A DNA stretch of 63,352 bases, counting the filler, from NCBI RefSeq assembly GCF_002087085.1. It is 4 parts of 4 records of this genome, joined end to end, with 100 filler letters (N's around TTAATTAATTAA, not from the genome) between each part and the next. Parts side by side here need not be neighbours in the genome. Positions count along the whole stretch, not along the records: positions 25,666 to 47,853 come from NZ_MWQY01000032.1; 3 more parts are not named here. One strand, given 5' to 3'. Under the pieces are notes generated by a model. It was not told the origin of the DNA, did no database searches, and saw nothing but the letters and a program-made list of their open reading frames with translations. Shown one piece after another: positions 23,034-39,310 of this stretch. The position numbers and the translations under genes were made by a program. The first letter of the stretch is position 1, and every line of letters begins with the position of its first letter.

Positions 23034-23045
23034 ACAGGAGCAGCA

Positions 23046-24685: not shown

Positions 24686-25488
24686 AGCTCGGACTTGAAG
24701 GCTCCCGGGCTGTAGTCACCGGTGCCGGAGGAGCCATCGGCGGCAGCATCGCCGAGCTCCTGGTAAAGGAGGGCGCCAGGGTGGCTATCTGGGACATCTC
24801 CGCCGAAAAGGCCGGGGAGGAGGCAAAAAAACTGGGAACAGACAGGGCCTTTCCCGTCACCTGCGACGTTACCAACCATGCCTCCATAAAAGTTGCCATG
24901 GAAAAATCCGTCGCCCAGCTGGGGGGCCTGGACATACTGGTCAACTGCGCAGGAGGCAGCCACCCGACCACAACGACCTCGGAGGAGCTTCCCTTCTTCG
25001 ATATTCTTCCCGACGATATGCGCAGGATCATGGACCTTAACTACCTGTCCGCGGTTATGACCTCCCAGGAGGCGGGACGGATCTTCGCCAGGCAGAAAAA
25101 GGGAGCGATACTGAACATCTCTTCCATAGCAGGTATTCTTCCTGTTACCCGGGGAATCAGCTACTCCAACGGCAAGGCGGCGACCAACAGCCTGACCAAA
25201 TGGCTGGCGGTACACATGGCCACCAACTACTCCCCGGACATCCGGGTAAACGCAGTTGCACCGGGCTTTCTGCTGACCGAGCAGAACCGCTTTCTGCTCT
25301 TCGACGAAAAGACCGGCGAACCCTCACAGCGGGGCAGAACAGTCATGTCCCAGGTTCCCATGAGACGCTACGGGACTCCTCAGGAGATCGCCGCCATGGC
25401 GGTATTCCTTGTATCGGAGCCGGCCAGCTTTATTACCGGTTCGGTTGTCCCCGTGGACGGAGGACTCACCTCTTTCCTGGGAGTATAG
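24682..25488 (+). CDS. SDR oxidoreductase (D-mannonate oxidoreductase-like)
   Basis: 'TGAGGAIG', 'NCAGGSHP', 'YSNGK', 'KWLAVHMA', 'PGFLLTEQNRFLL'. Confidence 0.82.
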   Translation: MKLGLEGSRAVVTGAGGAIGGSIAELLVKEGARVAIWDISAEKAGEEAKKLGTDRAFPVTCDVTNHASIKVAMEKSVAQLGGLDILVNCAGGSHPTTTTSEELPFFDILPDDMRRIMDLNYLSAVMTSQEAGRIFARQKKGAILNISSIAGILPVTRGISYSNGKAATNSLTKWLAVHMATNYSPDIRVNAVAPGFLLTEQNRFLLFDEKTGEPSQRGRTVMSQVPMRRYGTPQEIAAMAVFLVSEPASFITGSVVPVDGGLTSFLGV

Positions 25489-25510
25489 AATACGGATTAA
25501 TCAGAAAAAG

Positions 25511-25565
25511 GGGGCTGTCTAAGAAGAATCTTAGTCAGCTCCTTTACTATTTTGGGAGTGAGGGT
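25511..25565. mobile_element. Same IS end as 1-55, inverted, at contig end
   Basis: 55-bp exact inverted repeat of 1-55. Confidence 0.6.
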
Positions 25566-25665
25566 NNNNNNNNNNNNNNNNNNNNNNNNNNNNNNNNNNN
25601 NNNNNNNNNTTAATTAATTAANNNNNNNNNNNNNNNNNNNNNNNNNNNNNNNNNNNNNNNNNNNN
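25566..25665. other. Artificial contig spacer
   Basis: N-run + TTAATTAATTAA + N-run, 100 bp. Confidence 0.99.
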
Positions 25666-25906: not shown

Positions 25907-26218
25907 TATAAAAACTCCTTTTTTTCAGTGGTTCTACTGCTAAATACCAGCAGAACAAGGAGTTTGCTTCAGATCATCCCCACGGTTCGGGACACTACAC
26001 AAAGCTTTCACTCTTCCAGGGCACTTCCACAAGCTTAAGCAGCCGTGAAAACAGGCAGTGTACCTGGAAACAGCTTCAGCGAATCAGGATTCAGCATAAA
26101 AGCAGTTTTCAGATCTGCCCCCGCAAAAAAAACTTGACAGATACCGCATATCGTTCAACAATACAATAAATATTAAACTGTTAAACTAATTCACCATTAC
26201 TCCAGCTTAGGAGGCAGC

Positions 26219-26716
26219 ATGAGAAGGAACTGGTACCGCATCGTCCTGGCGATTTCGGTGGTAGTACTGTGGTTATTATTGACCCGCCCGGTAACAGGGC
26301 AGGAACTTACAGCCGGTCTGATACTGGCACTGATTCTGGCGCTGAGCCCCCTTCCGGGTTCAAAAGTATACGGCGAAATCAGCCTTGTGCCGAAAAAGAT
26401 ACTCGCGTCCTTTGTATATCTCATTATTTTTCTGGCCGCAGTTTTTAAATCCAATATCGATGTCGCGCTGCGTGTTTTAAGCCCCAGGCTCCCGATAAAT
26501 CCCGGGATCGTGCGGGTAAAAACCCGCTTGCGGAGTGCCCTCGGCCGGATGGTTCTGGCCAATTCCATTACCCTGACACCCGGTACCATAACCGTCGATA
26601 TCCGCGACGACGACCTGTTCATCCACTGGATCAACATTCAGTCCACCGACGTCCAGGAATCTACTCAGAAAATCGTCAGTGATTTTGAACGTCATTTGGA
26701 GGTGATCTTTGGCTGA
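26219..26716 (+). CDS. mnhE: Mrp-type Na+/H+ antiporter subunit E (MbxA-like)
   Basis: 'INPGIV', 'LANSITLTPGT', 'IHWI'. Confidence 0.92.
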   Translation: MRRNWYRIVLAISVVVLWLLLTRPVTGQELTAGLILALILALSPLPGSKVYGEISLVPKKILASFVYLIIFLAAVFKSNIDVALRVLSPRLPINPGIVRVKTRLRSALGRMVLANSITLTPGTITVDIRDDDLFIHWINIQSTDVQESTQKIVSDFERHLEVIFG

Positions 26717-26969
26717 TCTTATTCTTTTTGTCGCCGGCATCATTGTCCTGGCTGCCCTGGTGCTTGCCTTTGTCCGCTTTCTTGCCGGCCCCGATTATAT
26801 GAACAGAGTGGTGGCCTTCGATGCCCTGACGATCATGTCGCTCTCGGTAATCATCATGCTGTCCCACTACCTGGAACGTACAGCCTATCTTGACGTTGCC
26901 CTGGTATACGCGCTCCTCAGCTTTCTGGGAGTAATTGCCGTAGCCCGTTTTTCGGAAAAGGAGCTCTAG
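26709..26969 (+). CDS. mnhF: Mrp subunit F (MbxB-like)
   Basis: 'GPDYMNRVVAFD...LDVALVYALLSFLG'. Confidence 0.9.
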   Translation: MADLILFVAGIIVLAALVLAFVRFLAGPDYMNRVVAFDALTIMSLSVIIMLSHYLERTAYLDVALVYALLSFLGVIAVARFSEKEL

Positions 26970-26970
26970 A

Positions 26971-27330
26971 ATGACTGAAATTATCGGAGCTTTACTGGTT
27001 TTGGCGGGTGCACTTTTTCTGTTTCTTGCCGCTCTGGGGCTTATCCGCATGCCGGATGTCTACAACCGCATGCAGGCGGGTACAAAAGCGACCACTCTGG
27101 GCAGCATGCTGATTTTCATCGGTTTCAGCCTTTACAACCCCGGACACTGGCAGAAGTATCTGCTCCTGATTCTCTTCATCTTTCTGACAAACCCTCTCTC
27201 GTCCCATGCTCTGGCCCGGGCGGCCCACTTCAGCGGAATCCCGGCGCTTCTGGAAAAGTACGGATCACCGGAAACCCGACGGGACGACCTCCGCGAGGCC
27301 GGAGATCCCGAACAAGGAGGTGTCCGATGA
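26971..27330 (+). CDS. mnhG: Mrp subunit G (MbxC-like)
   Basis: 'RMPDVYNRMQAGTKATTLG', 'TNPLSSHALARA'. Confidence 0.92.
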   Translation: MTEIIGALLVLAGALFLFLAALGLIRMPDVYNRMQAGTKATTLGSMLIFIGFSLYNPGHWQKYLLLILFIFLTNPLSSHALARAAHFSGIPALLEKYGSPETRRDDLREAGDPEQGGVR

Positions 27331-27602
27331 TACATGCTGTACTGATTGTTTTTTCCCTGATGATGCTGGCTTCTGCCCTGGCCGCGGTACTGCTCAAGGA
27401 CGTGACTGGATCGATAATCGCTGCGGGGGTTGTTTCCCTCCTGGCCAGTGTGCTGTACCTGATTTACGGTGCCCCGGATGTCGCCATGACCGAGGCGGCC
27501 ATCGGGTCCGCCCTTACCACCGTTGTGTTCCTGATCGCCTGGGGCAGAATCAAGGGCGGGGAAGTTGACCAACCGGCAAACAGGGGGTCCAGCAATGATT
27601 AA
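27327..27602 (+). CDS. DUF4040/MbhD-like subunit (MbxD-like)
   Basis: 'APDVAMTEAAIG'. Confidence 0.9.
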   Translation: MIHAVLIVFSLMMLASALAAVLLKDVTGSIIAAGVVSLLASVLYLIYGAPDVAMTEAAIGSALTTVVFLIAWGRIKGGEVDQPANRGSSND

Positions 27603-28293
27603 ACGCATGAGCGTTCTGGTCCTTATGGTGCTGCTGGCCCTGGTGTTCTTTCCGCTGATATCCGGGATGCAGGACAGGGCTGAAATAGGGAAGCTCGCCA
27701 CGGCTTACCTGGAACAGGGGGTTGAGGATCTGAACGCCGCCAACCTGGTTACCTCTGTTATTGTCAGCTATCGCGGTCTGGACACCCTGGGGGAAGTTAC
27801 GGTACTTTTCGCCGCCGCGGCGGGTATCGCTCTGGTGTTTTCCCGTAAAAACGAAAGGCGTGAAAAAAACCATGATGAACGCAGAGAACCCTCGGAACTT
27901 ATTAAAACCGGTGCGGGGTTTCTGCTGCCTCCCATTTTCATCTTCGGTATCTATATCTTCCTGCACGGACACCTGACTCCCGGAGGAGGCTTTCAGGGAG
28001 GAGTAATAATCGCCTCGGGCGTTTTCTACGCCCTGGTGGCTGGGCTCAGGGAGGAACTCTCCCATGGCCTGCTTTCCGCGCTGGAAATGATTTCCGGTGC
28101 CGGCTACGTGGCCATGGGGCTGCTGGGGCTCTGGCTGGCCGCCGGTTTCCTGGACCCCCGATTTCTTCCTGCAGGAGAGTTCGGCAGCCTCTTTTCCGCC
28201 GGCGCCATACCGGTGATCTATACCCTGATCGGCGTCAAGGTCGGGGCCGAACTGTCGGGGGTAATCGATACCATGAAAAGGAGCCGCCCATGA
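27595..28293 (+). CDS. mnhB: MnhB-like subunit (MbhE/F fusion, MbxF-like)
   Basis: 'NLVTSVIVSYRGLDTLGE', 'HGHLTPGGGFQGG'. Confidence 0.9.
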   Translation: MIKRMSVLVLMVLLALVFFPLISGMQDRAEIGKLATAYLEQGVEDLNAANLVTSVIVSYRGLDTLGEVTVLFAAAAGIALVFSRKNERREKNHDERREPSELIKTGAGFLLPPIFIFGIYIFLHGHLTPGGGFQGGVIIASGVFYALVAGLREELSHGLLSALEMISGAGYVAMGLLGLWLAAGFLDPRFLPAGEFGSLFSAGAIPVIYTLIGVKVGAELSGVIDTMKRSRP

Positions 28294-28649
28294 GCACCCA
28301 GCTCTTGACTCTGCTGGCGCTGCTTTTGATGGGGATCGGGGTTTTCGGTCTCCTCTCCCGGCGCCATATCATGAAGATCATCGTAAGTTTTTCGCTGCTG
28401 GATACGGGAATCCATATCCTGCTCGTGGCAGTGGGATACCGCTCACAGGGGACGGCCCCGATTTTTGATGCGGACCTGACGGTTCGCGAGGGGCTGGCCA
28501 GGGCGGTGGACCCGGTTCCTTCCGCTCTGGTCCTTACGGCCATAGTTATAGGACTGGCTGTTACGGCGCTGATGCTCAGTTTCGCCGTTAAGATCTATCA
28601 GCGCAGAAAAACTGTCCATGTGGACAAAATAAGGGAACTCAAATGGTAA
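28290..28649 (+). CDS. mnhC: Mrp subunit C (MbxG-like)
   Basis: 'DPVPSALVLTAIVIG'. Confidence 0.92.
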   Translation: MSTQLLTLLALLLMGIGVFGLLSRRHIMKIIVSFSLLDTGIHILLVAVGYRSQGTAPIFDADLTVREGLARAVDPVPSALVLTAIVIGLAVTALMLSFAVKIYQRRKTVHVDKIRELKW

Positions 28650-31600
28650 ATCCTGTTATCTTCATCGCGGCTCTGCTGGGTTTTGCCTTTATCTATCCCC
28701 TGGCGGAAACCATCGGAAGAACCTTTGCCCGGGGTATCGCGCTTATCGTTATGGCGTTTTTCGCTCTGGCAGCAGTCTCATGGCTGCTGACGCTGGCCTC
28801 CGGCGCTCCGGTGATCGAAACGGGGACCGCCGGCTTCAGCGCTCCCCTCTCCATCAACCTGGCCGTTGGCGTACCCGAGGCTGCGGCCCTGACGGCCGTC
28901 TTTCTTGCCGGATTCGGCGCCCTGTTCCATCTGCTGTTCCGTGAGCAGGACCCCTGGCAGGGAAAACGGGTTGTTCTCTTTTTTATTCAGATGCTGGGAG
29001 CCGCCGGCCTGATCTTGACCCGGGATATCTTTAACCTCTTTGTTTTTATGGAGATATCCTCCTTAAGCCTCTTCGGCCTTCTGAGCACTTCCCGGGACGA
29101 ACGGATTTTCGAGGGCGGCTTCAAGTACATGGTCGCTTCGGGACTGGCCTCAGCCTTTTTTCTGATCGGGGTCGCCCTTGTATACCGGGAAGCCGGAACC
29201 CTCAGTATCGACGGTATAATCGAAGCCCGGGACAGACTGCAGGGATTCAGCGCGAGCATGGGACTCCTGCTGCTTCTGACCGGGGTCCTGATCGAACTGA
29301 AACCCGCGCCGGCCAACGGCTGGGCCCTGGACACCTACGAAGCCGCCGATCACGGCATCGGTTCCATGATGAGTGCCGTCGGCGCCACCGCCATGGCCAT
29401 GGTTCTCTTTAAAGTTCTGCCGATTTTTTCCTCACCGGCCCTCCCGGTTTTTAAACTCCTGGTAATCGCGGGGGCCGGTTCCTTTCTTATCTCCCAATTC
29501 GGCGCCCTGCGCCAGGAATCCTACAAACGTATGCTTGGCTACTCTTCGACGGCCCAGATTTCCCTGGTCGTCATGATTGCCGGGCTTACACCGGTCCTGC
29601 AGCATCCCCTGCGGGGATCCCTGCTTACAAGCCTCGCTGCCTTTATACCGGGCGGTGGGCCCGCTGCGGGAACCACGGCCATCGTCCTTCTTCTGCTGGT
29701 CAACCATGCCATGGCGAAGGCCGGTCTTTTCTGGATCGGCGGGGCCCTGAAAACCGCCGATACCGGCGGCGGCCCGATACTTCCCGCCTCCCTGCGCGGC
29801 CGGCCGGTTCTGCTGACCCTGCTTGGGATTTTCGTCGCCGCCCTGATCGGTCTGCCCCCCTTCCCTGCCTTCTGGGCAAAATGGTCGCTGATCATGGCTC
29901 TGGGACAGAGCGACTCCATTCTGGTAATGGCGCTTATACTGGCCGGATCCCTGGCCGAGGCAGTCTATCTGCTGCGCTTCTTTGTTATGAGCGCGCGCTC
30001 TTCGCAGGACACAGCGGATATTCTGGAAGAGACTATCCCCGGCGACTTCGAGGGAGAGCCCCCGGTCTACGATGCGGGGGTCGAAATCGGTCCCGGCGGA
30101 GCGCCGCAGACCGGACTTGCGGGTAATGCCAAAGAGGCGACAGCGTATGTTCCCGGCTCCTTTGTAAGCGGCGGGGTGCCCGCGCTGCTGGCCGCAGCGG
30201 TCCTGACGCTGCTGGGCGCGGGCTGCGCTCTGGCCGCCGGGGTTTCCACGACAATCCTCCTTCCCTTCGCGGCCCTGGTCCTTTTTGCCCTGCTGGACCT
30301 GCTGCGCTTTCCGGTCAGGCTGCAGCTGCCTGCGGCCATGACAGTAATCGGCCTCTACGGCTGGTATCTGCTGCCCGACCTGGAAGGGATGCGCCAGCTG
30401 TTCGCCCTGATGTTTATAGCCGGTTCCCTGGTACAGCTTGTCGCCTTCATGAACCGCAGGGGCCGGGAACCGGGGACCGCCGCGCTGCTTACGGCCCTGA
30501 TCCTCTCCCTGGGGGCGCTGACGGTGAGCGTCTCAAACCTCGATCTTTTTATAAGCTGGGAGACCATGACCCTGACATCCTTTCTTCTGATTCAGCGGGG
30601 GCGCCGGGCCGCGGCAGGAGCCCTCTGGTACATTAGCTGTTCCCTGGGCGGGGCCTATCTGCTCCTGAGCGGGCTCGCCCTGCTGGGAGAGGGGACATTT
30701 GTTACCGCTGCAGGAACAGCGCCGTCAGCGGCAATCCTGATTGCGTTGGGACTGCTTGTTAAACTCGGAGCCCTGGGACTCCACATCTGGCTGCCTGTCG
30801 CTTATGCCGAGGCCGAGGATGATTTCTCAAGTTTGATTTCGTCGGTGCTGAGCAAGGCGGGGCTCTTTGTCCTTTTTCTGGGGGCGGGCTTTTTTACCCC
30901 GCTGGTGTTCGGCGGCGCCGCTTTTTCCGGAATCCCCTTGAGCACCCTGATCGGCTGGTTGGGAGTCGCCACGGCCCTTGCCGGCGCGATGATGGCCCTG
31001 TTTCAGGAGGACATCAAGTACGCCCTGGCCTACTCCTCCATGGGTCAGGTGGGTTACATGGTGCTGACCTGGGCGGCCATGAGCCACCTGGGGTGGATAG
31101 CCAGCCTTTACCTTGCTGTCACCCACCTGATGTTCAAGGCCATGCTCTTTCTGGCCGTGGCCGGGGTAATCTACCGTACCGGAACGCGGCTCATGTACCA
31201 GATGGGGGGGCTCATTAAGCGCATGCCCCTGAGCTTTATTTCGGTCCTCTTCGCCATAATAGCCCTCTCCGGGGTGCCCCCTCTTACGGGTTTCGGCGCC
31301 AAATGGCTCATGTACTCGGCACTGATCGAGAAAGGCTGGTATCTGCAGGCGGGGCTTGCCATGTTCTCTTCCGGGGTCGCCTTTCTGTACCTGTTCCGGC
31401 TGATCCATTCCATTTTCCTCGGCCAGCGAAAACCGATCTACCACGACATCAAAGAGGCCCCGGCCTGGTTTATTATCCCCCAGATGATCTTTCTGGTTGT
31501 GGTATTCGCCTTCTCCATGTTTCCAAAGATCCTGATTGTTCCCCTGCAGAAGGTCATAGAGCCCTACTTCAGCTCCTCCGTCGTATGGGAGGGCTACAGT

Positions 31601-31981
31601 GTCATCTCCAGCCTGGGCTACTGGAACGGCAGCGCCGTCATGTACGTGACCATCGGCGTCTTTATCGCCCCCCTCCTGTGGCTGCTTCTCACCAAAGGCC
31701 GGGTCTACAGGGTGGAGCAGTTCAACATCGTCTACGCTGCGGAACGGCCCTACAAGCCGGAAACCACCCACTATGCCTATAACTTCTTCGGACACTACCG
31801 GAAAGCCCTGGGATTTCTGGTGGATCCGCTGGTTCGACGCTTCTGGCAGGGAACGGCGGAGGCCGCCGGCCAGATTTCAGGGGCCCTGCGGCGCATCAAT
31901 ACCGGAAATACCCAGACATACAGCCTGCAGATACTGGTCTATTTTCTGCTGGCCTACCTGATTACGCGAGGTGGCTTCTGA
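28643..31981 (+). CDS. Fused double proton-translocating antiporter-like subunit (MbxH+H'-like), 1112 aa
   Basis: Two antiporter-like domains: 'FVFMEISS...KRMLGYSS' and 'WETMT...KLGALGLHIWLP...LAYSSMGQ...GFGAKW'. They are joined by an acidic Gly/Pro linker, with a C-terminal lateral-helix-like tail. Confidence 0.9.
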   Translation: MVNPVIFIAALLGFAFIYPLAETIGRTFARGIALIVMAFFALAAVSWLLTLASGAPVIETGTAGFSAPLSINLAVGVPEAAALTAVFLAGFGALFHLLFREQDPWQGKRVVLFFIQMLGAAGLILTRDIFNLFVFMEISSLSLFGLLSTSRDERIFEGGFKYMVASGLASAFFLIGVALVYREAGTLSIDGIIEARDRLQGFSASMGLLLLLTGVLIELKPAPANGWALDTYEAADHGIGSMMSAVGATAMAMVLFKVLPIFSSPALPVFKLLVIAGAGSFLISQFGALRQESYKRMLGYSSTAQISLVVMIAGLTPVLQHPLRGSLLTSLAAFIPGGGPAAGTTAIVLLLLVNHAMAKAGLFWIGGALKTADTGGGPILPASLRGRPVLLTLLGIFVAALIGLPPFPAFWAKWSLIMALGQSDSILVMALILAGSLAEAVYLLRFFVMSARSSQDTADILEETIPGDFEGEPPVYDAGVEIGPGGAPQTGLAGNAKEATAYVPGSFVSGGVPALLAAAVLTLLGAGCALAAGVSTTILLPFAALVLFALLDLLRFPVRLQLPAAMTVIGLYGWYLLPDLEGMRQLFALMFIAGSLVQLVAFMNRRGREPGTAALLTALILSLGALTVSVSNLDLFISWETMTLTSFLLIQRGRRAAAGALWYISCSLGGAYLLLSGLALLGEGTFVTAAGTAPSAAILIALGLLVKLGALGLHIWLPVAYAEAEDDFSSLISSVLSKAGLFVLFLGAGFFTPLVFGGAAFSGIPLSTLIGWLGVATALAGAMMALFQEDIKYALAYSSMGQVGYMVLTWAAMSHLGWIASLYLAVTHLMFKAMLFLAVAGVIYRTGTRLMYQMGGLIKRMPLSFISVLFAIIALSGVPPLTGFGAKWLMYSALIEKGWYLQAGLAMFSSGVAFLYLFRLIHSIFLGQRKPIYHDIKEAPAWFIIPQMIFLVVVFAFSMFPKILIVPLQKVIEPYFSSSVVWEGYSVISSLGYWNGSAVMYVTIGVFIAPLLWLLLTKGRVYRVEQFNIVYAAERPYKPETTHYAYNFFGHYRKALGFLVDPLVRRFWQGTAEAAGQISGALRRINTGNTQTYSLQILVYFLLAYLITRGGF

Positions 31982-32913
31982 TGGCAACTGCGATACTGAC
32001 CAAGGCGTTCTACACCCTGATCTCGCTCTTCGTGATCCTCAACTACGGGCTTATCCTGATGGGAACCATGGCCCGGGTCCGGGCGAAGGTGCAGGGGCGC
32101 ATAGGACAGCCCTTTTATCAGCCCTATATCGACATGATCAAGAACAGCGCCAAGCGGACGGGAATCACCCACGGGGTGATGTTCTTTCTGGGACCCGTCT
32201 TCCGGCTGGCCGGCGGACTGGGGACCTACCTCTTCATTCCCGTTATTTTCGGTTCCGCGGTTTTCGCGAACTTCAGTTTCTCCGGTGACCTGCTGCTGGT
32301 CATGTATTTTATATTCTTCGGACAGCTCGGGATGGCCCTGGGGGCCGGAGAGAGCGGGCATCCCTTCAGTCCCATCGGGGTCTCCCGGGGACTGGCCCAG
32401 ATGACCGCCTTCGAACTGCCCTTCAGCCTGGCGGTAATCTCCCTGGCGGCCCAGTACCAGACACTGTCGATTACCGGGATCGTCGCCGCCCAGCAGGGGG
32501 GCTTCCAGAACTGGGCGGCCTTTACCAATCCCCTGGCTATGGCCGCCGGCATGCTGGCCTTTCTGGGCATGAGCATGAACAACCCCTTCAGCGTGGTTGT
32601 CGCCCCTCAGGAGATCCCCATCGGTCCGCCGACGGAGATGCAGTCCGGCTTTCTGGGTATGCTGCAAGCTAACCGGGCGATCTTCAACGGCGCCAAGATG
32701 GTCCTCTTTATGAACCTCTTCTGGGGGGGAGCGGCCCATCCGAACATCTTTATCGCCATCCTGATCATGGTGGCCAAGACCTTTCTGATCTACCTCTACG
32801 TGGTAATCGTGGGGGTCAGTTTCCCGCGGTTTAAAACCCATCAGTCGATCCGCTTTTTCCTGGGGGTACCTACCCTGCTGGGTCTGGCGGCAGTAATTCT
32901 GCAGATGCTATAG
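31981..32913 (+). CDS. NuoH-like membrane subunit (MbxM-like)
   Basis: 'AKVQGRIGQPFYQPYID', 'PFSVVVAPQEI..GP.TE', 'FPRFK'. Confidence 0.9.
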   Translation: MATAILTKAFYTLISLFVILNYGLILMGTMARVRAKVQGRIGQPFYQPYIDMIKNSAKRTGITHGVMFFLGPVFRLAGGLGTYLFIPVIFGSAVFANFSFSGDLLLVMYFIFFGQLGMALGAGESGHPFSPIGVSRGLAQMTAFELPFSLAVISLAAQYQTLSITGIVAAQQGGFQNWAAFTNPLAMAAGMLAFLGMSMNNPFSVVVAPQEIPIGPPTEMQSGFLGMLQANRAIFNGAKMVLFMNLFWGGAAHPNIFIAILIMVAKTFLIYLYVVIVGVSFPRFKTHQSIRFFLGVPTLLGLAAVILQML

Positions 32914-32931
32914 GAAAAAGGAGTTCCAACA

Positions 32932-33666
32932 ATGAGCGACACTAAACAGATCGATACAGCCGTTGCACCGGTAAAGAATCCTGATCCCCGTACGGTATCC
33001 GTCCGGCCGATGGAGACGGACGCCGTGGCAGCGGAACAGATTCGTCTCTTTACCGAAGAGGGCAGACTGGCCAACGACGGTCTTGCCGACAGCGACCGGC
33101 CGAATTTCTGTGACCAGCCGCCGGAGGTAATCAAACCCTTCAAGGGAGCCTGGGAGAAATTCCTGAACTGGGCCAGGAGCGAGTCCCTCTGGATCCTGGG
33201 ATTCGGGACCGGATGCGGCGCCATAGAGCTCCGTCCCCTGATGACCAGCCGCTTCGATATGTACCGCTTCGGCATACAGCCCCGTCCCACTCCAAGGCAG
33301 TCCAGTGTCTTTATTATCGGAGGTTATGCTTCGGTAAAGACGATGAAGCGCATCGTCCGCAGCTACGAACAGATGCAGGGGCCCAAGTTCGTAATCGGCC
33401 TGGGAAGCTGCACCATCAACGGCGGCATGTACTGGGACAGCTACAACACGGTCAACCGGCTGGACCACTATATTCCGGTGGACATCTACATCGCCGGCTG
33501 CATGCCCCGCCCGGAAGCCCTGCTGGCGGGCTTCCAGAAGCTGAAAAGGATGATAAAGGAAGGCCGCTGCGAGGGGGCCAACAAATACGCGGAGAACTTC
33601 GCCTGGTATAAAGCAAACCAGAAGCGGATCATCAAAGACTGGAACATGCCGGACTACAACTGGTAA
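32932..33666 (+). CDS. NuoB-like Fe-S subunit (MbxJ/MbsJ-like)
   Basis: 'SLWILGFGTGCGAIE', 'GSCTINGGMYWDSY', 'IAGCMPRPEA'. Confidence 0.92.
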   Translation: MSDTKQIDTAVAPVKNPDPRTVSVRPMETDAVAAEQIRLFTEEGRLANDGLADSDRPNFCDQPPEVIKPFKGAWEKFLNWARSESLWILGFGTGCGAIELRPLMTSRFDMYRFGIQPRPTPRQSSVFIIGGYASVKTMKRIVRSYEQMQGPKFVIGLGSCTINGGMYWDSYNTVNRLDHYIPVDIYIAGCMPRPEALLAGFQKLKRMIKEGRCEGANKYAENFAWYKANQKRIIKDWNMPDYNW

Positions 33667-33684
33667 GGAACAAAGGGAAGGAAT

Positions 33685-34269
33685 ATGAGTATGAACGATA
33701 AAGCAGCACAGCTGACGGCCCCCGACGCGGTCAGAACGGTGATTGACGCGCTTTTCCTGCGTTTCGGCGTCTCGGGGCTGGAGGAAAAAAATGCGTACCA
33801 GGCCTTTTTGCGGGTCGAAAAAGACGAGGCGGTATCCGTCATTACACATCTTAAGGAGATCGCCGCCTACACGCACCTGTCGTTTTTGACCGCCGTGGAC
33901 CAGATCGAACGCGGCAAATTCGAGCTTCTCTACATGCTTCACAGCTATGAGAAGAACCACGACCTGGGAATCATCGTCGATGTGGACAGGGAAAACAGCG
34001 AGATGGACAGTATTCACCATCTCTGGCCGGCGGCGGAGACCTATCAGCGGGAACTCAGGGAGATGTACGGCGTTATCTTTCCCGGCAGCCCCCGGCTCTA
34101 CGAAGACTTTGCCCTGGAGGGCTGGGAGGAACTGCCCCCCATGCGGCGGGACTTCGACACAAAAGAGTACAGCGAAAAAACCTATTACGCCCGTCCCGGC
34201 CGCTCGAGTACCGATACCCGGGAACACATGAAGAAGAAACTCTACCCCAGCGAGGCGGAAACATGGTAA
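33685..34269 (+). CDS. NuoC-like subunit (MbxK-like)
   Basis: 'LTAVD', 'YQRELREMYGVIFPG', 'PPMRRDFDT'. Confidence 0.9.
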   Translation: MSMNDKAAQLTAPDAVRTVIDALFLRFGVSGLEEKNAYQAFLRVEKDEAVSVITHLKEIAAYTHLSFLTAVDQIERGKFELLYMLHSYEKNHDLGIIVDVDRENSEMDSIHHLWPAAETYQRELREMYGVIFPGSPRLYEDFALEGWEELPPMRRDFDTKEYSEKTYYARPGRSSTDTREHMKKKLYPSEAETW

Positions 34270-35483
34270 AAACAGGCAACACCGGGGTCAGCGATCTCGC
34301 TACCCGCAACAGCGCCCATATAAACGACAATCCCCGCATGCCGGAAATCGTAAACGGAAAGAGCCGCTTTAACCTGGAGAGCGGAAAGTACCTGAAGGTC
34401 TGGCAGGGGCCCCAGCATCCCGGAATTACCGGGAACATGAGCCTTGAGCTTACCATCTGCGGCGACGAAATCGTGGAGTGCAAGACCCATGTGGGTTACC
34501 TGCACCGGGGCTTCGAAAAACTGATGGAACGGCGCAAGTATATTCAGTGCTTTCCCATCGTCTGCCGCATCTGCGTGCCCGAGCCCGATTTTAACGAGTA
34601 CCTCTTTGCCGCCACGGTGGAGGAACTGGCCGGAATTACGATCCCCGAACGGGCAGTATGGATCCGGACCCTGAACCTTGAGATGGCCCGGCTTGCCAGT
34701 TTCCTCATGTGGATCGGCGGCCAGGCGGGGGCCTTCGGCATGGGGACCTTAGGACAGTGGACGGTAACCCTGCGGGACTACGTGCTGGACCGTTTCGAAG
34801 AGCTCAGCGGCGGCCGGATCTACCACATGTACATGATTCCCGGGGGCGTCCGCGCCGATTTTCCCGAAGGCTTCCGGGAACGCCTCCTGGAGACCCTGGA
34901 GACCGTGGAAAGCACCCTCAAGGACATCGAACTGGCCATGTTCAGCAACGGGGTATTTAAAAAACGGGCCGTCGGACTGGGGGTAATCGCCCCGGAGATC
35001 GTCGACCAGTTCGGCATTACCGGCCCCAACGCCCGGGCGGCGGGCTTCAAGCGGGACACCCGCAAGGACCGCCCCTATCTGGTCTACGACCGGCTTGATT
35101 TCGAGGTCATTACCGCCACCGGGTCCGACGCCTACAGCCGGGCCGTGGTACGCCTGAAGGAGACCTTCCAGTCCATCGACCTTATCCGGCAAATTCTGGA
35201 AAAAATGCCCCAGGAGGGGCCCTTCTTTACCAAACTCCCCAACCCGCTGCACTGGAAAGTCCCGGCGGGCCAGATCTACCTGAAAGCCGAGTGTACCCGG
35301 GGAGAGTACGGCTACTACCTGAACTCCGACGGGGGAGACAAACCCCGGAGGATCTATGTTCGGGGTCCCAGTTATACCCACGCGGTGGCGCTCATGGAGC
35401 ACCTCTCCATCGGCTGCGATATCGCCGATACGGCGGGGCTGATGGTTTCGCTGCATACCTACCCCCCAGAGGTAGAGAGATAA
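34263..35483 (+). CDS. NuoD-like catalytic subunit without NiFe ligands (MbxL/MbsL-like)
   Basis: 'GPQHPG', 'GYLHRGFEKL', 'RICVPEPD', C-terminus 'SLHTYPPEVER'. Confidence 0.9.
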   Translation: MVKTGNTGVSDLATRNSAHINDNPRMPEIVNGKSRFNLESGKYLKVWQGPQHPGITGNMSLELTICGDEIVECKTHVGYLHRGFEKLMERRKYIQCFPIVCRICVPEPDFNEYLFAATVEELAGITIPERAVWIRTLNLEMARLASFLMWIGGQAGAFGMGTLGQWTVTLRDYVLDRFEELSGGRIYHMYMIPGGVRADFPEGFRERLLETLETVESTLKDIELAMFSNGVFKKRAVGLGVIAPEIVDQFGITGPNARAAGFKRDTRKDRPYLVYDRLDFEVITATGSDAYSRAVVRLKETFQSIDLIRQILEKMPQEGPFFTKLPNPLHWKVPAGQIYLKAECTRGEYGYYLNSDGGDKPRRIYVRGPSYTHAVALMEHLSIGCDIADTAGLMVSLHTYPPEVER

Positions 35484-35501
35484 AAGGCAGGAAGGTTCAG
35501 T

Positions 35502-37286
35502 ATGAGTCTGAAAGATTTAGCGGCCCCCTTTACCGTATGGAAGAGGGCCTTCGAAAAACCCTATACCCAGATCAAGCCCATCGAAGAGCGTCCGGGAGCG
35601 GAGCGCTACCGGGGCTTTCACATCAACGACACGGACAAATGTATCGGCTGCGGCACCTGCGAATCGGTGTGCCAGAACGAAGCCATCGACCTGGTGCCCG
35701 TTACAGAGAGGGAGACCAGGCATGGAGATTCGGGATTGCGGCCGAAGATCGACTACGGACGCTGCTGCTGGTGCGCCCTCTGCGTCGACATCTGTCCAAC
35801 GAGCTCCCTGGGCATGAGCAACGAGTATATCTGGATCGACGAAGACCCGGAGGTTTTCCGCTTTGTGCCCGGAGAGGATGAGACATCCTGGCAGACGAGC
35901 GACAAGGGCTACCGCCGGGCCGAAGGTTACGAGCTGCTGGAAGGGGAACGGGTGCCCATGCCGATGCTCTCCTTCGAGGAGAGCCGGAAGAGCTTCGTCG
36001 AGATGGTGCAGGGCTACAGCAGGGAACAGGCCATTGCCGAGGCGGACCGCTGCGTTGCCTGCGGGATTTGCATCGCCACATGTCCCGCCCACATGGATGT
36101 TCCCGCCTACATCGACGCCATCCGCCGGGACGACATGGAGGATGGTTTGAGGATCGTCTATCAGGCGAATCCCCTGCCCGCCTCCTGTGGCCGGGTCTGT
36201 TCCCACGCCTGCGAATACGTCTGCGCCGTAAAGCACAAGGGAGAGGCGCTTTCCATCCGCTGGCTCAAGCGCTACATCGTGGACCAGATCTACCTGGGAG
36301 ACTACAGGGGGGTACTGGAAAGCGCGGAGAATCAGAACGGTAAAAAGGTCGCCGTTATCGGTTCCGGTCCCGGCGGACTTGCCGCGGCATACTATTTGAG
36401 ACTCCTTGGCTACGAGGTTCGCATATTCGACGCCAACGAAAAAGCCGGAGGCATGCTGCGCTACGGAATCCCCGAATACCGGCTGCCCTACGACCAGGTG
36501 GATAAGGACATCGAATACATCCGCAGTCTGGGGGTAGAGATCCACCAGAATGTCAGGATCGGCGTCGACATTCCCTTCCGGGAGATTTACGACGACAACG
36601 ACGCGGTTTTCTTTTCCACCGGTCTTACCGACCCCTACGGCCTGGACATTGCCGGCGAAGATCTGCCGGGGGTCATTTCGGGACTGAAAATACTGGACGA
36701 TGTGACCGACGGCAGGGATCCGGAGGTCGGAAAATCTGTTGTTGTCGTGGGTGGAGGAAATGTGGCCATGGACGCTGCCCGTACAAGCCGCCGTTACGGC
36801 GCCGAGGTTACGATCCTCTACCGTCGACGGGAAGAGGACATGCCAGCCGACGAGGAGGAGATCCACGAAAGCCGGGGGGAAGGCTGCCGGCTGCTTACCC
36901 AGGCGATCCCCCTGCGCCTGGAGAAGGGGGAGACTACCCGCCTCAAGCTCTACTGGGGCAAAGCGGAGATGATCCCCGATCCTGAGGGGGGACGGCCCCG
37001 GCCGCAGCTGATAGAGGGCAGCGAGGAGATGATTGAATGCGACACCGTCATACCCGCCATCGGACAACAGGCGGATTATGCCTTCCTGCCGGAGGAGATT
37101 TCCGCTAAAATCAGTTTCAAACGCGGCATGGTCCAGATAAACGAGTACCGTCAGACAGGAGACACGAAAATCTTCGCCGGCGGAGACATCGCCAACCGTA
37201 AGCGCGACGCTATCAGCGCCATCGCCGACGGCCATTCTGCAGCCAAGGGGATCGACATCTTTTTAACGACCCCGGGGAAAAATTAA
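35502..37286 (+). CDS. NuoI-like 2x[4Fe-4S] domain fused to GltD-like FAD/NAD(P)H oxidoreductase
   Basis: N-terminal 'RYRGFH..CIGCGTCESVC...CCWCALCVDICP', then 'CVACGICIATCP', 'CGRVCSHACEYVC', 'GSGPGG', 'GMLRYGIPEYRLP', 'GGGNVAMD', 'YRR'. Confidence 0.92.
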   Translation: MSLKDLAAPFTVWKRAFEKPYTQIKPIEERPGAERYRGFHINDTDKCIGCGTCESVCQNEAIDLVPVTERETRHGDSGLRPKIDYGRCCWCALCVDICPTSSLGMSNEYIWIDEDPEVFRFVPGEDETSWQTSDKGYRRAEGYELLEGERVPMPMLSFEESRKSFVEMVQGYSREQAIAEADRCVACGICIATCPAHMDVPAYIDAIRRDDMEDGLRIVYQANPLPASCGRVCSHACEYVCAVKHKGEALSIRWLKRYIVDQIYLGDYRGVLESAENQNGKKVAVIGSGPGGLAAAYYLRLLGYEVRIFDANEKAGGMLRYGIPEYRLPYDQVDKDIEYIRSLGVEIHQNVRIGVDIPFREIYDDNDAVFFSTGLTDPYGLDIAGEDLPGVISGLKILDDVTDGRDPEVGKSVVVVGGGNVAMDAARTSRRYGAEVTILYRRREEDMPADEEEIHESRGEGCRLLTQAIPLRLEKGETTRLKLYWGKAEMIPDPEGGRPRPQLIEGSEEMIECDTVIPAIGQQADYAFLPEEISAKISFKRGMVQINEYRQTGDTKIFAGGDIANRKRDAISAIADGHSAAKGIDIFLTTPGKN

Positions 37287-37290
37287 GAGT

Positions 37291-37324
37291 CGCCGGCATG
37301 GAGAACAAGCCCTCCATGCCGGCG
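37291..37324. other. Strong intergenic stem-loop
   Basis: CGCCGGCATGGAG-aacaagcc-CTCCATGCCGGCG, with no U-tract. Confidence 0.6.
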
Positions 37325-37346
37325 GGGAGTTCGGGAAACGAGGATT

Positions 37347-37724
37347 ATGGATACAATCGACATGACGGCGGATGCCGGATTGAAAAGCCGAATCAGGGAA
37401 ATTAAAAACCGTTTTACCCAGGTCAGATGTAATGAAGTACAGCAGCTGCTGAATACGATGGCGAATCCCGTCCGTTTCCATATCCTCTGCGCCCTCAGGG
37501 TCCAGCCCTTCACAGTTACCGAGCTGGTGGAAATCTCCGAGGCAAACATATCCAATGTCAGTCAGCAGTTGAAGATGATGTGGATGGCGGGATATCTGGC
37601 AAAAGAAAAAAAGGGGAAGCAGGCCTACTATCGGCTGGCAAGCGACAGAATCGACAGGATTGTGGGATTCCTGGAAGATCTTTTTCCGGAGAACCGGCAG
37701 GAGGAGTGCGGCTGCGAGGATTGA
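37347..37724 (+). CDS. ArsR/SmtB family regulator, Cys-rich
   Basis: 'MANPVRFHILCAL...VTELVE...VSQQL...YYRL', C-terminal 'EECGCED'. Confidence 0.88.
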   Translation: MDTIDMTADAGLKSRIREIKNRFTQVRCNEVQQLLNTMANPVRFHILCALRVQPFTVTELVEISEANISNVSQQLKMMWMAGYLAKEKKGKQAYYRLASDRIDRIVGFLEDLFPENRQEECGCED

Positions 37725-37848
37725 ATCGCCCCGAACTCTCCATGATATAGAAAGAGCAATACATTATATTTTTTGTCATATTTCTTGACTTAGCCCTGCA
37801 CCAGGTTCATTTTATACAGCATGACGATTGAAAATAGTGGAGGATTCC

Positions 37849-38544
37849 ATGAAAAAAGTCTGTATAATCGGTGCCTCCGGTAAGCTCGGACGCTACATGG
37901 TCGCCCAGGCACTGGAGAGGGGATATGCTGTGACAGCGGTCTGCCGCCCGGAAAGTATGGAAAAACTGGCGGATTCCAAGGACACAATCCATATAATCGG
38001 CGGCAGAACCAACGATCGGGATATTATCCGCAGGGCCGTTGCAGGCTGCGACGGCGTTCTTTGCGTTCTCGTTCCCTGGGGAAGAGACACCTACTCATCC
38101 GGTACCGCCCAGGCCGTACTCGACAATGCCGATCCCAATGACAGGCTGGTGTTCTCCAGCGGCTGGCACATCTCCCGGGACGGCAGGGATATCTATTCAA
38201 AGAAATTCTTACGGATGCTCAGGTTTGTGAGCTGGATTACCCGTCTTTTGGGGCTGATCGATATACGGGATCAGGAAGAGGCCTGCCGTCGCATCTTTGC
38301 GAGCGACAGCCTGTGGACGCTGGTACGCGGCAGTGATCTCGAAGAGGGAGAAAGTGAAGGGCTCCCGGTCTGGAGCCGACATGTGGGAGACCCAATTCTG
38401 CAAAGTAATATTACCCGTCGCATCGATTTCGCCCTGTTCATGGTTGACGCCCTTACCAGGCCTGAACTGATACATGAGGCTCCGGCTATCGTCAGCCGCC
38501 TTTCCCCATCCGCCCTTGCCCATGGAAGAGAGGAGACTGCCTGA
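37849..38544 (+). CDS. NAD(P)H-binding flavin reductase-like (BVR-B-like) protein
   Basis: 'IIGASGKLG', 'WTLVR', 'TRRIDFALFM'; GGAGG RBS. Confidence 0.82.
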   Translation: MKKVCIIGASGKLGRYMVAQALERGYAVTAVCRPESMEKLADSKDTIHIIGGRTNDRDIIRRAVAGCDGVLCVLVPWGRDTYSSGTAQAVLDNADPNDRLVFSSGWHISRDGRDIYSKKFLRMLRFVSWITRLLGLIDIRDQEEACRRIFASDSLWTLVRGSDLEEGESEGLPVWSRHVGDPILQSNITRRIDFALFMVDALTRPELIHEAPAIVSRLSPSALAHGREETA

Positions 38545-38596
38545 CCGGCCTGTATTCGAGGATCTATCATTTGAAAAACATATAAGGAGTGAAATT

Positions 38597-39310
38597 GTGG
38601 AAAACACAGGTTCATTACGGCGCTACGGCATTATTGCAGGGGTAGGATACATTCTCTTGTTTGTGCTGGCAATCTTCGCCAATTTTGTAGTACGGGAGGG
38701 TTTGATTGTCGCCGCAGACGCGGCACAGACCGCCGTGAACATCCGCGGGTCGGAAGGTCTGTTCCGGACGGGCATTGTGAGTTTTATGCTGGTGTTTCTG
38801 ATCGATGTCCCGGTTGCCTGGGCTCTCTATGTGCTCTTCAGCCCGGTAAACCGGAATCTCTCCCTGCTTTCTGCCTGGTTCCGGATAGTTTATACCGTAT
38901 TCCTGGGGGTCGCCCTGATCTTCTTTTTCCAGGCCCTTCAATTGTACAGTAACGCTGAATTTCTTCGGGTCTTCACCGAGGAGCAGCTGAATGCCCAGGC
39001 TTTGACAGCCTTGAATCTGTTCAATTCGACCTGGCTCATCGGGCTTTTAGCCTTCGGAGTCCATCTGGTTATAGCTGGGGTACTGTTGATCAAATCCCGG
39101 TGGACCGTTCCCCTCCTCGGGTACATCGTCATGATCTCCGGGATCACCTATGTAATCGATACAGCAGCGCATTCGCTGCTTGCCAACTACGCCGACTACG
39201 CCATGGTGTTGCTGGTTATCGTCGCGGTTCCTTCCATACTGGCGGAAGGATGGTTCGGCCTCTGGCTGCTGATTAAGGGCGGAAAGAACATTCAGGCAAT
39301 GCCGGAGTAA
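38597..39310 (+). CDS. DUF4386-like membrane protein
   Basis: 'AGVGYI', 'DVPVAWALY', 'AWFRIVY', 'FGVHL', 'LWLLIKG'; AAGGAG RBS before GTG. Confidence 0.75.
   Translation: MENTGSLRRYGIIAGVGYILLFVLAIFANFVVREGLIVAADAAQTAVNIRGSEGLFRTGIVSFMLVFLIDVPVAWALYVLFSPVNRNLSLLSAWFRIVYTVFLGVALIFFFQALQLYSNAEFLRVFTEEQLNAQALTALNLFNSTWLIGLLAFGVHLVIAGVLLIKSRWTVPLLGYIVMISGITYVIDTAAHSLLANYADYAMVLLVIVAVPSILAEGWFGLWLLIKGGKNIQAMPE

Follow-up and report, generated by a model that had tools for sequence, protein, structure and literature searches.

A 12-gene operon in a spirochaete almost certainly belongs to a widespread bacterial family of Mbx/MBS-like ion pumps related to complex I, in an NADPH-type form. It may work as an ion-translocating NADPH:sulfane-sulfur oxidoreductase; for that whole mechanism, acceptor and direction included, our analysis gives a probability of about 0.5. 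The host, originally called a probable spirochaete, is one, and its best named relative is Ca. Marispirochaeta associata.

Operon layout and membrane arm

The window, meaning the whole stretch of DNA analysed (63,352 nucleotides of assembly GCF_002087085.1), consists of four contigs joined with N spacers at 25566-25665, 47854-47953 and 60576-60675. The operon's own contig occupies 25666-47853 and the operon starts 554 nt inside it; because separate contigs were joined here, genes upstream of position 25566 are not its neighbors. Profile searches of translated ORFs revealed an intact operon of tightly packed genes on the plus strand (26219-37286), with overlaps of 1-38 nt or gaps of 1-18 nt between them. 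All genes named in the original prediction of an MBX/MBS-like operon are present on this strand, at the positions given below, and the subunit set and order are those of the P. furiosus MBS (formerly Mbx; 6U8Y, PMC7684303), as had been claimed. Across the 4.2-Mb genome, PF00346 matched this locus only.

The sequence shows a membrane arm made up of an entire Mrp-type module and a fused MbsH-MbsH' antiporter-like pair. It opens with an MrpE-like (MNHE/MrpE) membrane subunit at the MbsA position (26219-26716; PF01899, 3.2e-37), which leads the conserved gene order in 51 of the best 80 related loci. MrpF-like (26709-26969; PF04066, 8e-17) and MrpG-like (26971-27330; PF03334, 4.9e-28; NF009314 above cut-off) subunits follow at the MbsB and MbsC positions, then an MbhD-like subunit at the MbsD position (27327-27602; PF13244, 4.5e-19), an MbhE plus MnhB-like subunit at the MbsE position (27565-28293; PF04039, 3.2e-20; PF20501, 2e-7) and an MrpC/NuoK-family (Oxidored_q2) subunit at the MbsG position (28290-28649; PF00420, 2.8e-26). 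This last gene amends the prediction that NuoA, NuoJ, NuoK and NuoEFG are all missing: NuoA and NuoEFG are indeed absent, but the MrpC-like gene encodes a NuoK-family protein.

The antiporter-like pair, unlike that of P. furiosus MBS, is fused into one protein of 1112 aa with two antiporter modules (28643-31981). The two halves have MbsH and MbsH' as their best PDB matches: residues 6-313 match 6u8y_H (1.1e-51) and residues 680-1103 match positions 191-612, of 618, in 6u8y_X (2.8e-52), with the C-terminal half resembling MbsH' inclusive of its C-terminal extension. Among 64 related loci that reach this gene, 58 have an ORF of at least 1000 aa.

Upstream of the operon lies a candidate sigma-70-like promoter on the plus strand (26134-26162; TTGACA, 17 nt, AACAAT) that agrees with the consensus at 10 of 12 positions, although such sites are no more numerous in the region than in shuffled sequence. 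The candidate falls inside a segment that is also conserved 5' of the operon in two further spirochaetes: a TTGACA...GTTCAACAAT...TTAAACTnTTAAA block aligns among the window and loci L084 and L008, while the remaining upstream DNA does not. Farther 3' on the contig are genes for an NmrA-like protein, a DUF4386 protein, a sugar ABC transporter and GH127. Two RNA libraries from a single study yielded near-identical contigs covering the operon.

Peripheral arm and proximal cluster

By the same kind of comparison, the peripheral arm is MbsM/J/K/L-like, with a three-Cys proximal cluster and neither a NiFe site nor the Nqo4 quinone ligands. It comprises a NuoH/MbsM-like membrane anchor (31981-32913; PF00146, 2.2e-40), a NuoB/MbsJ-like proximal [4Fe-4S] subunit (32932-33666), a NuoC/MbsK-like subunit (33685-34269; PF00329, 1.6e-27) and a NuoD/MbsL-like subunit (34263-35483). 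For the D-, B-, H-, H'- and N-like parts alike, an MBS chain is the best PDB match, and the B-, D- and antiporter-like subunits fit P. furiosus MBS far better than they fit complex I or MBH. With 6u8y_L (MbsL) the D-like subunit reaches 320.8 bits, against 219.9 with Nqo4 and 138 with MbhL, and the B-like subunit matches 6u8y_J (MbsJ) at 2.4e-65, against 1.8e-38 for NdhK, the next match. Both predicted signatures were recovered, 'RICVPEPD', shared with P. furiosus MBS, in the D-like translation and 'GCGAIE' in the B-like one.

The B-like subunit aligns with MbsJ without gaps across 163 residues, placing its cysteine ligands C95, C160 and C190 opposite MbsJ C28, C93 and C123, with Gly92 facing MbsJ C25. 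It lacks the tandem Cys of NuoB, and the single-Cys motif is kept in 72 of 75 family rows. In the D-like subunit, C104 aligns with MbsL C85 and Y400 with MbsL C385. C104 is the only one of the four NiFe cysteines that is kept, in keeping with the prediction of an incomplete NiFe ligand set and in contrast to MBH (6CFW), while P. furiosus MbsL retains two. Position 104 is Cys in 57 and Ala or Ser in 27 of 84 rows, and position 400 is Tyr in 63 rows and Cys in 19. In the available portion of the MBS study (PMC7684303), the three-Cys proximal cluster is the catalytic site and C25, C85 and C385 are dispensable; the free variation at positions 104 and 400 agrees with the account given there of C85 and C385.

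Complex I (4HEA) and MBH share homologous H, B, C, D, I and antiporter-like subunits with this operon, as well as a general coupling architecture. That the complex is a plain NAD(P)H:quinone oxidoreductase, complex I with a changed input module, is nevertheless extremely improbable. The D-like subunit passes the broad NuoD model NF004739 (396 bits against a cut-off of 360), and relatives are named 'NADH-quinone oxidoreductase subunit D' in source databases, but it misses the curated NuoD equivalog TIGR01962 (302 against 459), and it has T56 and V105 where Nqo4 carries the quinone ligands H38 and Y87. The missing tandem Cys of the B-like subunit also argues against a quinone reaction, as does the failure of MenA and cytochrome bd to find a match in the 97%-complete genome, where NrfD was likewise unmatched.

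Phylogeny agrees with the structural matches in grouping the D-like subunit with MbsL rather than with Nuo or group-4 hydrogenases, and PDB scores place the B-like subunit with MbsJ, as had been anticipated. The bacterial clade (support 100) adjoins P0128 and P0129, the latter with MbsL as its best PDB match, and FpoD and NuoD representatives fall outside it. The branch joining this clade to the MbsL-like representatives has moderate support (81) in a tree that holds no named Thermococcales or Thermotoga sequence, and a long separate branch (0.77) leads to the bacterial clade.

The fused electron-entry subunit and its family

The last operon gene (35502-37286) encodes a 594-aa protein in which an MbsN/NuoI-like domain is fused to an NfnB/SudA/GltD-type flavoprotein (Fer4_20 and Pyr_redox_2), so that the NAD(P)H input claimed for the complex is located within this subunit. 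Residues ~9-135 form the 2x[4Fe-4S] MbsN/NuoI-like domain (6u8y_N, 4e-22). Residues ~148-589 form the flavoprotein part, with FAD, NAD(P)H and 2x[4Fe-4S] sites, and align full-length with NfnB/SudA (4YLF, 5JCA; ~2e-82 for 4ylf_B and 5jca_L) and GltD (6S6S, 2VDC; 2e-57), with which they have in common both [4Fe-4S] motifs, the FAD and NAD(P)H folds and the YRR motif. The match to NF010590 is near-full-length (8.8e-215), yet below the model cut-off. Each of the 16 Fe-S cysteines is present in 76-79 of 79 rows. Unlike in NfnB/SudA and GltD, the flavoprotein here stands behind an MbsN-type domain and is attached to a membrane complex; P. furiosus MBS differs in its MbsN, which in the spirochaete carries this C-terminal extension.

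The YRR (NADPH-type) motif lies at residues 440-442 and tracks one clade of the family, xLE tracking the other. Given the NfnB-type NADPH flavoprotein on MbsN, the electron donor is probably NADPH and not ferredoxin. A simple linear electron wire through this flavoprotein is our assumption; the NfnB-type flavin bifurcates in Nfn. The operon, in contrast to Nfn, has no NfnA-like partner, and nothing therefore points to a second branch of high potential.

In Nfn, modules of the NfnB type connect NADPH with ferredoxin, which lends some weight to an ion-translocating ferredoxin:NADP+ oxidoreductase, the older Mbx model, in which reduced ferredoxin from pyruvate oxidation would dock at the MbsN-like domain, the flavoprotein would reduce NADP+ and pumping would be Rnf-like. 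The MbsN-like domain, the ferredoxin dock in MBS, is retained, and the available text of PMC4758237 puts the model forward for mbx-like operons with a gltD-related subunit. We regard it as unlikely here. Coupling begins at the proximal cluster and chamber in all solved relatives (PMC7684303, in the part available), and if the reaction took place only at the tip of the peripheral arm, neither the conserved three-Cys site nor the L/J/M chamber would have a function. Rnf-type genes, among them two Rnf/Nqr-type D subunits, are also present in the genome already.

The system is not rare, and its novelty in spirochaetes was overstated originally: no characterised spirochaete example was found in the literature searched, but the same operon, fusion included, is found across many bacterial phyla. 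Operons of the mbx-like type that end in a gltD-related subunit were described from Thermotoga and proteobacteria (Degli Esposti 2015, PMC4758237, available in part), and the present operon, like the T. maritima MBX (PMC9431562), belongs to that family. The D-like subunit is encoded in at least 577 stretches of species genomes. The best 80 loci come from Spirochaetota, Cloacimonadota, Bacteroidota and Pseudomonadota; all 12 gene products are on one strand in 51 of them, and the NuoI-flavoprotein fusion is a single ORF in 73, the other seven being cut by contig ends. Of 40 relatives sampled in the spirochaete class, 8 encode the fused subunit at full length. The literature searched yielded no report of Mbx in Sphaerochaeta and one unrelated spirochaete mention otherwise. 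Particular to the window are its spirochaetal, YRR-clade copy, a subclade-specific BigR/SqrR-like regulator, the lack of MenA, cytochrome bd and NrfD matches and the RNA-library contigs.

Acceptor, direction and regulation

In the mechanism that we propose, NADPH would reduce the FAD, and electrons would pass through the two flavoprotein [4Fe-4S] clusters and the two MbsN-type clusters to the three-Cys proximal cluster. There, in the chamber of the L, J and M subunits, a hydrophobic acceptor would be reduced, and this would power the H-H' subunit as an H+ pump and the Mrp module as an Na+/H+ exchanger. The likeness to P. furiosus MBS suggests sulfane sulfur, in the form of polysulfide or persulfide, as the likeliest acceptor. 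Redox potentials are about -320 mV for NADPH and about -260 mV for polysulfide. The drop between them falls well short of the driving force that ferredoxin supplies in MBS, and yet no pump module has been lost, which counts against the proposal. The absence of sulfur genes adjoining the operon on its contig counts against it as well, and would suit an NADPH-driven pump acting on some other acceptor, such as an organic disulfide or trisulfide or a small hydrophobic oxidant, at the open iron of the proximal cluster.

Such an acceptor seems unlikely. The family spans very different lifestyles, including aerobic or quinone-containing Pseudomonadota (Roseobacteraceae loci L062 and L065, and Gallionellaceae), so that sulfur respiration alone may not account for every member; in the literature searched, no assay of acceptor or activity was found for any fused bacterial member. 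Conversely, the features that define the MBS catalytic site are all kept, and many holders are sulfur-cycling taxa (Thiodiazotropha, Sedimenticola, Chromatiaceae, Thiohalospira). In T. maritima, the accessible part of PMC9431562 has mbxA, nsr, yeeE and rnfC rising with S0 or thiosulfate, mbxA 4.36-fold after S0 addition. The spirochaete genome has YeeE-type transporters and CoADR/NSR-like genes, the latter below the model cut-off.

Complex-I-type machines are reversible, and an ion gradient could instead drive electrons uphill from sulfide or polysulfide, a weak donor, at the chamber to NADP+, giving NADPH. The family is frequent among sulfur-oxidising autotrophs, and a putative Mrp-Mbx complex of the Riftia symbiont shares co-expression neighbors with the rTCA cycle (PMC11636981, available in part). 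For this host we find reverse operation very unlikely: it looks like a sugar fermenter, with seven FeFe-hydrogenase-like matches, and its genome gives no sign of a respiratory chain able to build a large gradient.

The predicted regulator is an ArsR/SmtB-family gene of the BigR/SqrR/HlyU type on the plus strand (37347-37724; NF033788 above cut-off), 60 nt downstream of the last operon gene. A perfect 13-nt inverted repeat with an 8-nt loop lies between the two (37291-37324, plus strand), with no T run 3' of it on that strand. The best PDB matches of the regulator are BigR from Xylella (3PQJ, 3.8e-9) and SqrR from Rhodobacter (6O8L, 1.1e-6), while NF040642 (BigR) falls below its cut-off (6e-14; 51.9 bits against 155). 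C48 aligns with the first sensing Cys of both proteins, but Pro114 occupies the position of the second, and helix 1 holds the other conserved Cys, C28. Every orthologue has both C28 and C48, whereas the C-terminal CGC is not kept in every one. An orthologue follows the operon only in loci L004, L005, L007, L008 and L084, within its own subclade. The regulator might conceivably couple operon expression to thiol or persulfide status.

P. furiosus is a hyperthermophilic archaeon, and the host described here a mesophilic-looking bacterium. If the proposed NADPH-driven reduction of sulfane sulfur is correct, a fermenting spirochaete would dispose of reducing equivalents onto sulfur and gain ion-motive force in doing so.

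Organization of the operon and its surroundings

Twelve + strand genes, overlapping or no more than 18 nt apart, occupy positions 26219-37286, and a thirteenth begins 60 nt after the twelfth. Profile searches with Pfam and NCBIfam models identified the products, in order, as MrpE-like, MrpF-like, MrpG-like and MbhD-like proteins (genes 1 to 4), a protein with MbhE and MnhB-like parts (gene 5), an MrpC/NuoK-family protein (gene 6), a 1112-residue protein containing two antiporter modules (gene 7), and NuoH, NuoB, NuoC and NuoD (genes 8 to 11). Gene 12 (35502-37286) encodes 594 residues, in which a NuoI-type dicluster domain is followed by Fer4_20 and Pyr_redox_2 domains (NF010590, 8.8e-215, below its cut-off). 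Gene 13 (37347-37724, + strand) encodes an ArsR/SmtB regulator. The Mrp, double-antiporter and Nuo-like series of the original prediction was therefore borne out by these twelve assignments, as was the regulator gene accompanying it. Gene calls and Pfam agree with its further claim that the operon holds no NuoEFG and no NuoA/J genes, and both signatures it had cited, 'RICVPEPD' in the D-like and 'GCxxIE' in the B-like protein, are present in the translations. A profile search of the genome returned the operon locus as the sole match to PF00346.

The window joins four contigs through spacers at 25566-25665, 47854-47953 and 60576-60675, each consisting of 44 N, TTAATTAATTAA and 44 N, so that gene neighborhoods are not readable across them. 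Because the operon begins at nucleotide 554 of its contig, genes before 25566 are not its context; the genes at 21948-25613, considered as upstream context, were ruled out because they lie beyond an N spacer on another contig. Downstream of the regulator, 37828-39310 encodes an NmrA-like NAD(P)H-binding protein and a DUF4386 membrane protein, without counterpart in related loci. The following region (39311-47670) holds two ABC permeases, a solute-binding protein, a GH127 beta-L-arabinofuranosidase, a LacI regulator and an aspartate-dehydrogenase-like gene; these sugar-use genes fit a saccharolytic fermenter. No sulfur genes adjoin the operon on its contig. On the third contig, positions 47954-54000 have a G+C content of 0.34-0.38, versus about 0.55 elsewhere, and encode a TRAP transporter (DctPQM), an iron alcohol dehydrogenase and an HTH-cupin regulator; this low-G+C contig may be of foreign origin or have been binned wrongly. 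Further along, 57288-58598 encodes a Mu-type transposase (rve, Mu-transpos_C), and the fourth contig encodes an 828-residue RHS-repeat protein (60774-63260).

Relationship to MBS, complex I and hydrogenases

Subunits were compared by searches against all PDB chains. The D-like protein matched MbsL of the P. furiosus membrane-bound sulfane sulfur reductase (MBS, formerly Mbx; 6u8y_L) over its full length with 320.8 bits, ahead of T. thermophilus Nqo4 (219.9 bits), MbhL of the membrane-bound hydrogenase MBH (138) and HycE (110). Similarly, the B-like protein matched MbsJ at 2.4e-65, with the next match at 1.8e-38 and MbhJ at 5.7e-23. In the long antiporter protein, the N-terminal half matches MbsH and the C-terminal half MbsH', nearly to the end of the chain, and residues 1-135 of the last protein match MbsN. 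The operon thus carries a full Mrp-type module, the H and H' pumps, the M anchor and the J/K/L/N arm, arranged as in MBS except that H and H' are fused.

The sections of Yu et al. (2020, PMC7684303) that deal with the catalytic site define MBS by a proximal [4Fe-4S] cluster on just three MbsJ cysteines (C28, C93 and C123), an MbsL without two of the four NiFe cysteines, and the absence of Nqo4 H38 and Y87. Activity was kept, according to the same sections, in mutants of MbsJ C25 and MbsL C85/C385. The MBS cluster lies in a shorter loop than its MBH counterpart. In the window, B-like residues C95, C160 and C190 align ungapped with the three MbsJ cysteines, and Gly92 stands at C25. The D-like protein has C104 at the position of MbsL C85 and Tyr400 at that of C385, Thr56 at Nqo4 H38 and Val105 at Nqo4 Y87. 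Judged from these alignments, the MBS catalytic-site features are all present in the predicted proteins, and the NiFe and complex-I quinone sites are excluded.

Group 4 [NiFe] hydrogenases (MBH/Ech/Hyc) have four NiFe cysteines in the large subunit, whereas the D-like protein keeps one of the four, so the incomplete ligand set noted originally holds. The features of complex I (NuoEFG, NuoA/J, tandem cysteines in NuoB, quinone ligands in NuoD) are likewise not matched by the operon; its B subunit has a single cysteine, and its D subunit scores below the cut-off of the NuoD model TIGR01962. Across the family, the single-cysteine B motif occurs in 72 of 75 rows. Of 84 D-like rows, 57 have Cys and 27 have Ala or Ser where MbsL has C85; where MbsL has C385, Tyr is found in 63 rows and Cys in 19. 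This variability fits the dispensability of both positions in P. furiosus. MBS takes its electrons from ferredoxin through a free-standing MbsN; in the window the MbsN-like domain instead continues into an NfnB-type NAD(P)H flavoprotein of 450 residues.

When 5.8 billion proteins were searched, 3676 of the 8000 candidates scored were matches at E <= 1e-20. The best 120 of these are 68-99% identical, carry the database name 'NADH-quinone oxidoreductase subunit D' and, where named, come from Spirochaetaceae, Spirochaetales, Sphaerochaeta, Pleomorphochaeta and Cloacimonetes. Scanning a single genome of each prokaryote species with a pattern gave at least 582 stretches, at least 577 of which encode a D-like relative. 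The best 80 of these loci span Spirochaetota, Cloacimonadota, Bacteroidota, Pseudomonadota, Calditrichota, Chlorobiota and Aminicenantes, the closest named one being Candidatus Marispirochaeta associata JC231 (83%). Within the same 80 loci, the NuoI-like domain and flavoprotein share one open reading frame in 73, the remaining 7 being cut off where a contig ends; 51 loci encode the full set of 12 products on one strand, and the window shares their order A-B-C-D-E-G-HH'-M-J-K-L-N. Of the 64 loci extending as far as the HH' reading frame, 58 have one of at least 1000 residues. Closer to the window, 8 of 40 relatives of the same class encode a full-length match to the fused subunit; among 150 further genomes sampled evenly across the phylum, 16 have a D-like match at E <= 1e-90.

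In a quick maximum likelihood tree of 95 D-like rows, the fused-operon family (84 rows) forms a single clade with support of 100, adjoining two representatives through a branch with support of 81. The references are unnamed 50%-identity representatives, labeled through PDB and NCBIfam searches and without named Thermococcales or Thermotoga sequences; within that frame, the adjoining representative P0129 best matches MbsL (346.7 bits versus 248.5 for Nqo4), and representatives passing the FpoD or NuoD models fall outside the clade. The phylogenetic check proposed with the original prediction places the D-like subunit beside an MbsL-like representative and apart from those of the NuoD type, at a joining support of only 81, and together with the PDB scores, subunit order and site residues it supports the MBS-like assignment. 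The window protein belongs to a spirochaete subclade (support 96-99) that also contains Marispirochaeta associata, a Spirochaeta sp. and a Salinispira sp., which, along with its closest relatives, supports the proposed spirochaete host.

The complex encoded in the window is typical of its family, which is widespread in bacteria and described from genomes alone, and to which the spirochaete copy adds a regulator and a clear cofactor motif and no new architecture.

The fused flavoprotein and the adjacent regulator

Residues 148-589 of the last protein match NfnB/SudA (4ylf_B, 5jca_L) at about 2e-82, better than GltD (2e-57), so that a NuoI-type domain and an NfnB/GltD-type flavoprotein form one polypeptide of 594 residues, in support of the expectation that the complex has its own NAD(P)H input. 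Its 16 Fe-S cysteines are kept in 76-79 of 79 family rows. At the end of the second Rossmann strand the window protein has YRR (residues 440-442); across the 79 rows this motif is YRR in 36, xLE in 38 and gapped in 5. The two types follow the tree, with 37 xLE, 2 YRR and 3 gapped rows in one clade (support 97), and 34 YRR, 1 xLE and 2 gapped rows outside it. By the classical rule, Arg binds the 2'-phosphate and an acidic residue the ribose hydroxyls; an NADPH-type and an NADH-type clade are thus predicted, the window belonging to the former. Both types occur in one spirochaete genus (YRR in locus L084, CLEP in L040). One relative, G035, has two full-length copies of the fused subunit. In parts of PMC4758237 that treat bacterial mbx-like operons, their gltD-related last subunit is read as an NAD(P)+ site.

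Elsewhere in the genome (G000:C34:93169-96232), a GltD/NfnB-like domain lies in an open frame of about 1050 residues immediately 5' of an FeFe-hydrogenase gene; the two may form a hydrogenase linked to NAD(P)H, and the genome thereby uses the flavoprotein module a second time.

Among the best 80 loci, an ArsR orthologue follows the operon solely in the window's subclade (L004, L005, L007, L008 and L084). The best PDB matches of the regulator are BigR (3.8e-9), then HlyU and SqrR, with a score below the cut-off of the BigR model. BigR and SqrR place their sensing cysteines in helices 2 and 5; window C48 aligns with the first, whereas Pro114 stands at the second. Further cysteines are C28, C121 and C123, and across six orthologues C28 and C48 are invariant, while the C-terminal CGC is not. 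The protein is possibly a thiol- or persulfide-based switch; alternatively, it may sense a metal or arsenite. In two of the related loci, an extra GltD-like reading frame lies between the fused N and ArsR genes: 511 residues stop to stop in L007 (Spirochaeta sp., about 4500-6700) and 533 in L008 (Salinispira sp., about 13100-15500).

A promoter-like site, TTGACA-17-AACAAT, lies 57 nt 5' of the first start codon; the region holds 6 such sites versus a shuffle mean of 6.2, that is, no enrichment. At 26130-26200, a block of about 60 nt (TTGACA...GTTCAACAAT...TTAAACTnTTAAA) holds this site and aligns between the window, L084 and L008, whereas the surrounding DNA does not, making it a candidate promoter plus operator. 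No inverted repeat of at least 10 nt was found in the 553 nt 5' of the operon. The gap separating the twelfth gene from the ArsR gene contains a perfect inverted repeat of 13 nt around a loop of 8 nt (37291-37324). The hairpin is not a canonical terminator because no T run follows on the + strand; it could stabilize RNA, terminate transcription in part or bind a protein.

Contigs of two metatranscriptomic libraries from one sediment study cover the operon with few differences (for example, 0 in 506 nt and 2 in 663 nt), with depth in 28/30 and 22/30 bins. They record presence in RNA libraries, which may also hold DNA, and not transcript structure. Contigs of the RNA run X19 have no depth at 37125-37581 and almost none at 37582-38038, where the DNA run X1 continues, although such contigs cannot show transcript ends.

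Electron donor, acceptor and physiological setting

Conserved cofactor motifs trace an unbroken chain from the NAD(P)H/FAD fold through 2 + 2 + 1 Fe-S clusters, ending at the three-cysteine proximal cluster. The operon also encodes an MBS-type chamber, two antiporter-like pumps and a full Mrp module. NADPH would be the electron donor and sulfane sulfur the acceptor, and the reaction between them would be coupled to ion pumping.

Four other ways of running such a complex have to be weighed. Reduction of quinone appears unlikely in this organism, because queries for MenA, cytochrome bd and NrfD gave no match in the genome, which is 97% complete. An acceptor other than sulfane sulfur would suit the occurrence of the family in aerobic Pseudomonadota and the lack of sulfur genes by the operon, both weak points of the sulfane-sulfur mechanism; the catalytic-site residues shared with MBS favor sulfane sulfur. 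The genome also encodes CoADR/NSR-like genes (below equivalog cut-offs), YeeE-type transporters, two Rnf/Nqr-type D subunits, seven FeFe-hydrogenase-like matches and one molybdopterin enzyme match, on contig G000:C27 and not on the third piece of the window. The third and fourth alternatives are operation in reverse and the older ferredoxin:NADP+ model. Two further weak points of the sulfane-sulfur mechanism are that NADPH provides little driving force for reducing polysulfide and that the flavoprotein is of the NfnB type, which bifurcates in Nfn.

For T. maritima, the sections of Liang et al. (2022, PMC9431562) on sulfur addition report mbxA up 4.36-fold after S0, along with nsr, yeeE and rnfC, and propose MBX as a sulfur reductase. 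These sulfur-responsive gene types all have counterparts in the window genome. A putative Mrp-Mbx complex is noted in part of a report on the Riftia symbiont (PMC11636981). In the literature searched, we found no paper tying an Mbx/MBS-like complex to spirochaetes, the text that names both citing a spirochaete for YeeE alone; literature searches on Sphaerochaeta, Cloacimon- and Marispirochaeta likewise found nothing about such a complex.

Taken jointly, the operon may encode an energy-conserving sulfur reductase of free-living spirochaetes, governed by a BigR-like switch and existing as two distinct pump types across clades, a combined reading that we consider improbable as a whole, at roughly one chance in eight. 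NADPH, perhaps plus ferredoxin by flavin confurcation at the NfnB-type domain, would reduce polysulfide at the three-cysteine Fe-S cluster, and the subclade-specific regulator, with its invariant C28 and C48, would turn the operon on when sulfane sulfur appears. If this is true, the split between YRR (NADPH) and xLE (NADH), both within one spirochaete genus, would separate two pumps of distinct physiology.

Hundreds of species genomes from anoxic and sulfidic habitats encode the bacterial Mbx/MBS-like complex, whose donor, acceptor and ion stoichiometry are all inferred. The lineage of the window has cultivated relatives (Marispirochaeta, Sediminispirochaeta and Sphaerochaeta). Given these, the NADPH-type motif, a candidate redox or persulfide regulator, the lack of any quinone sign and the presence in sediment RNA, it offers a reasonable test case for the question of whether fermenting bacteria can conserve energy by reducing sulfur with NAD(P)H.
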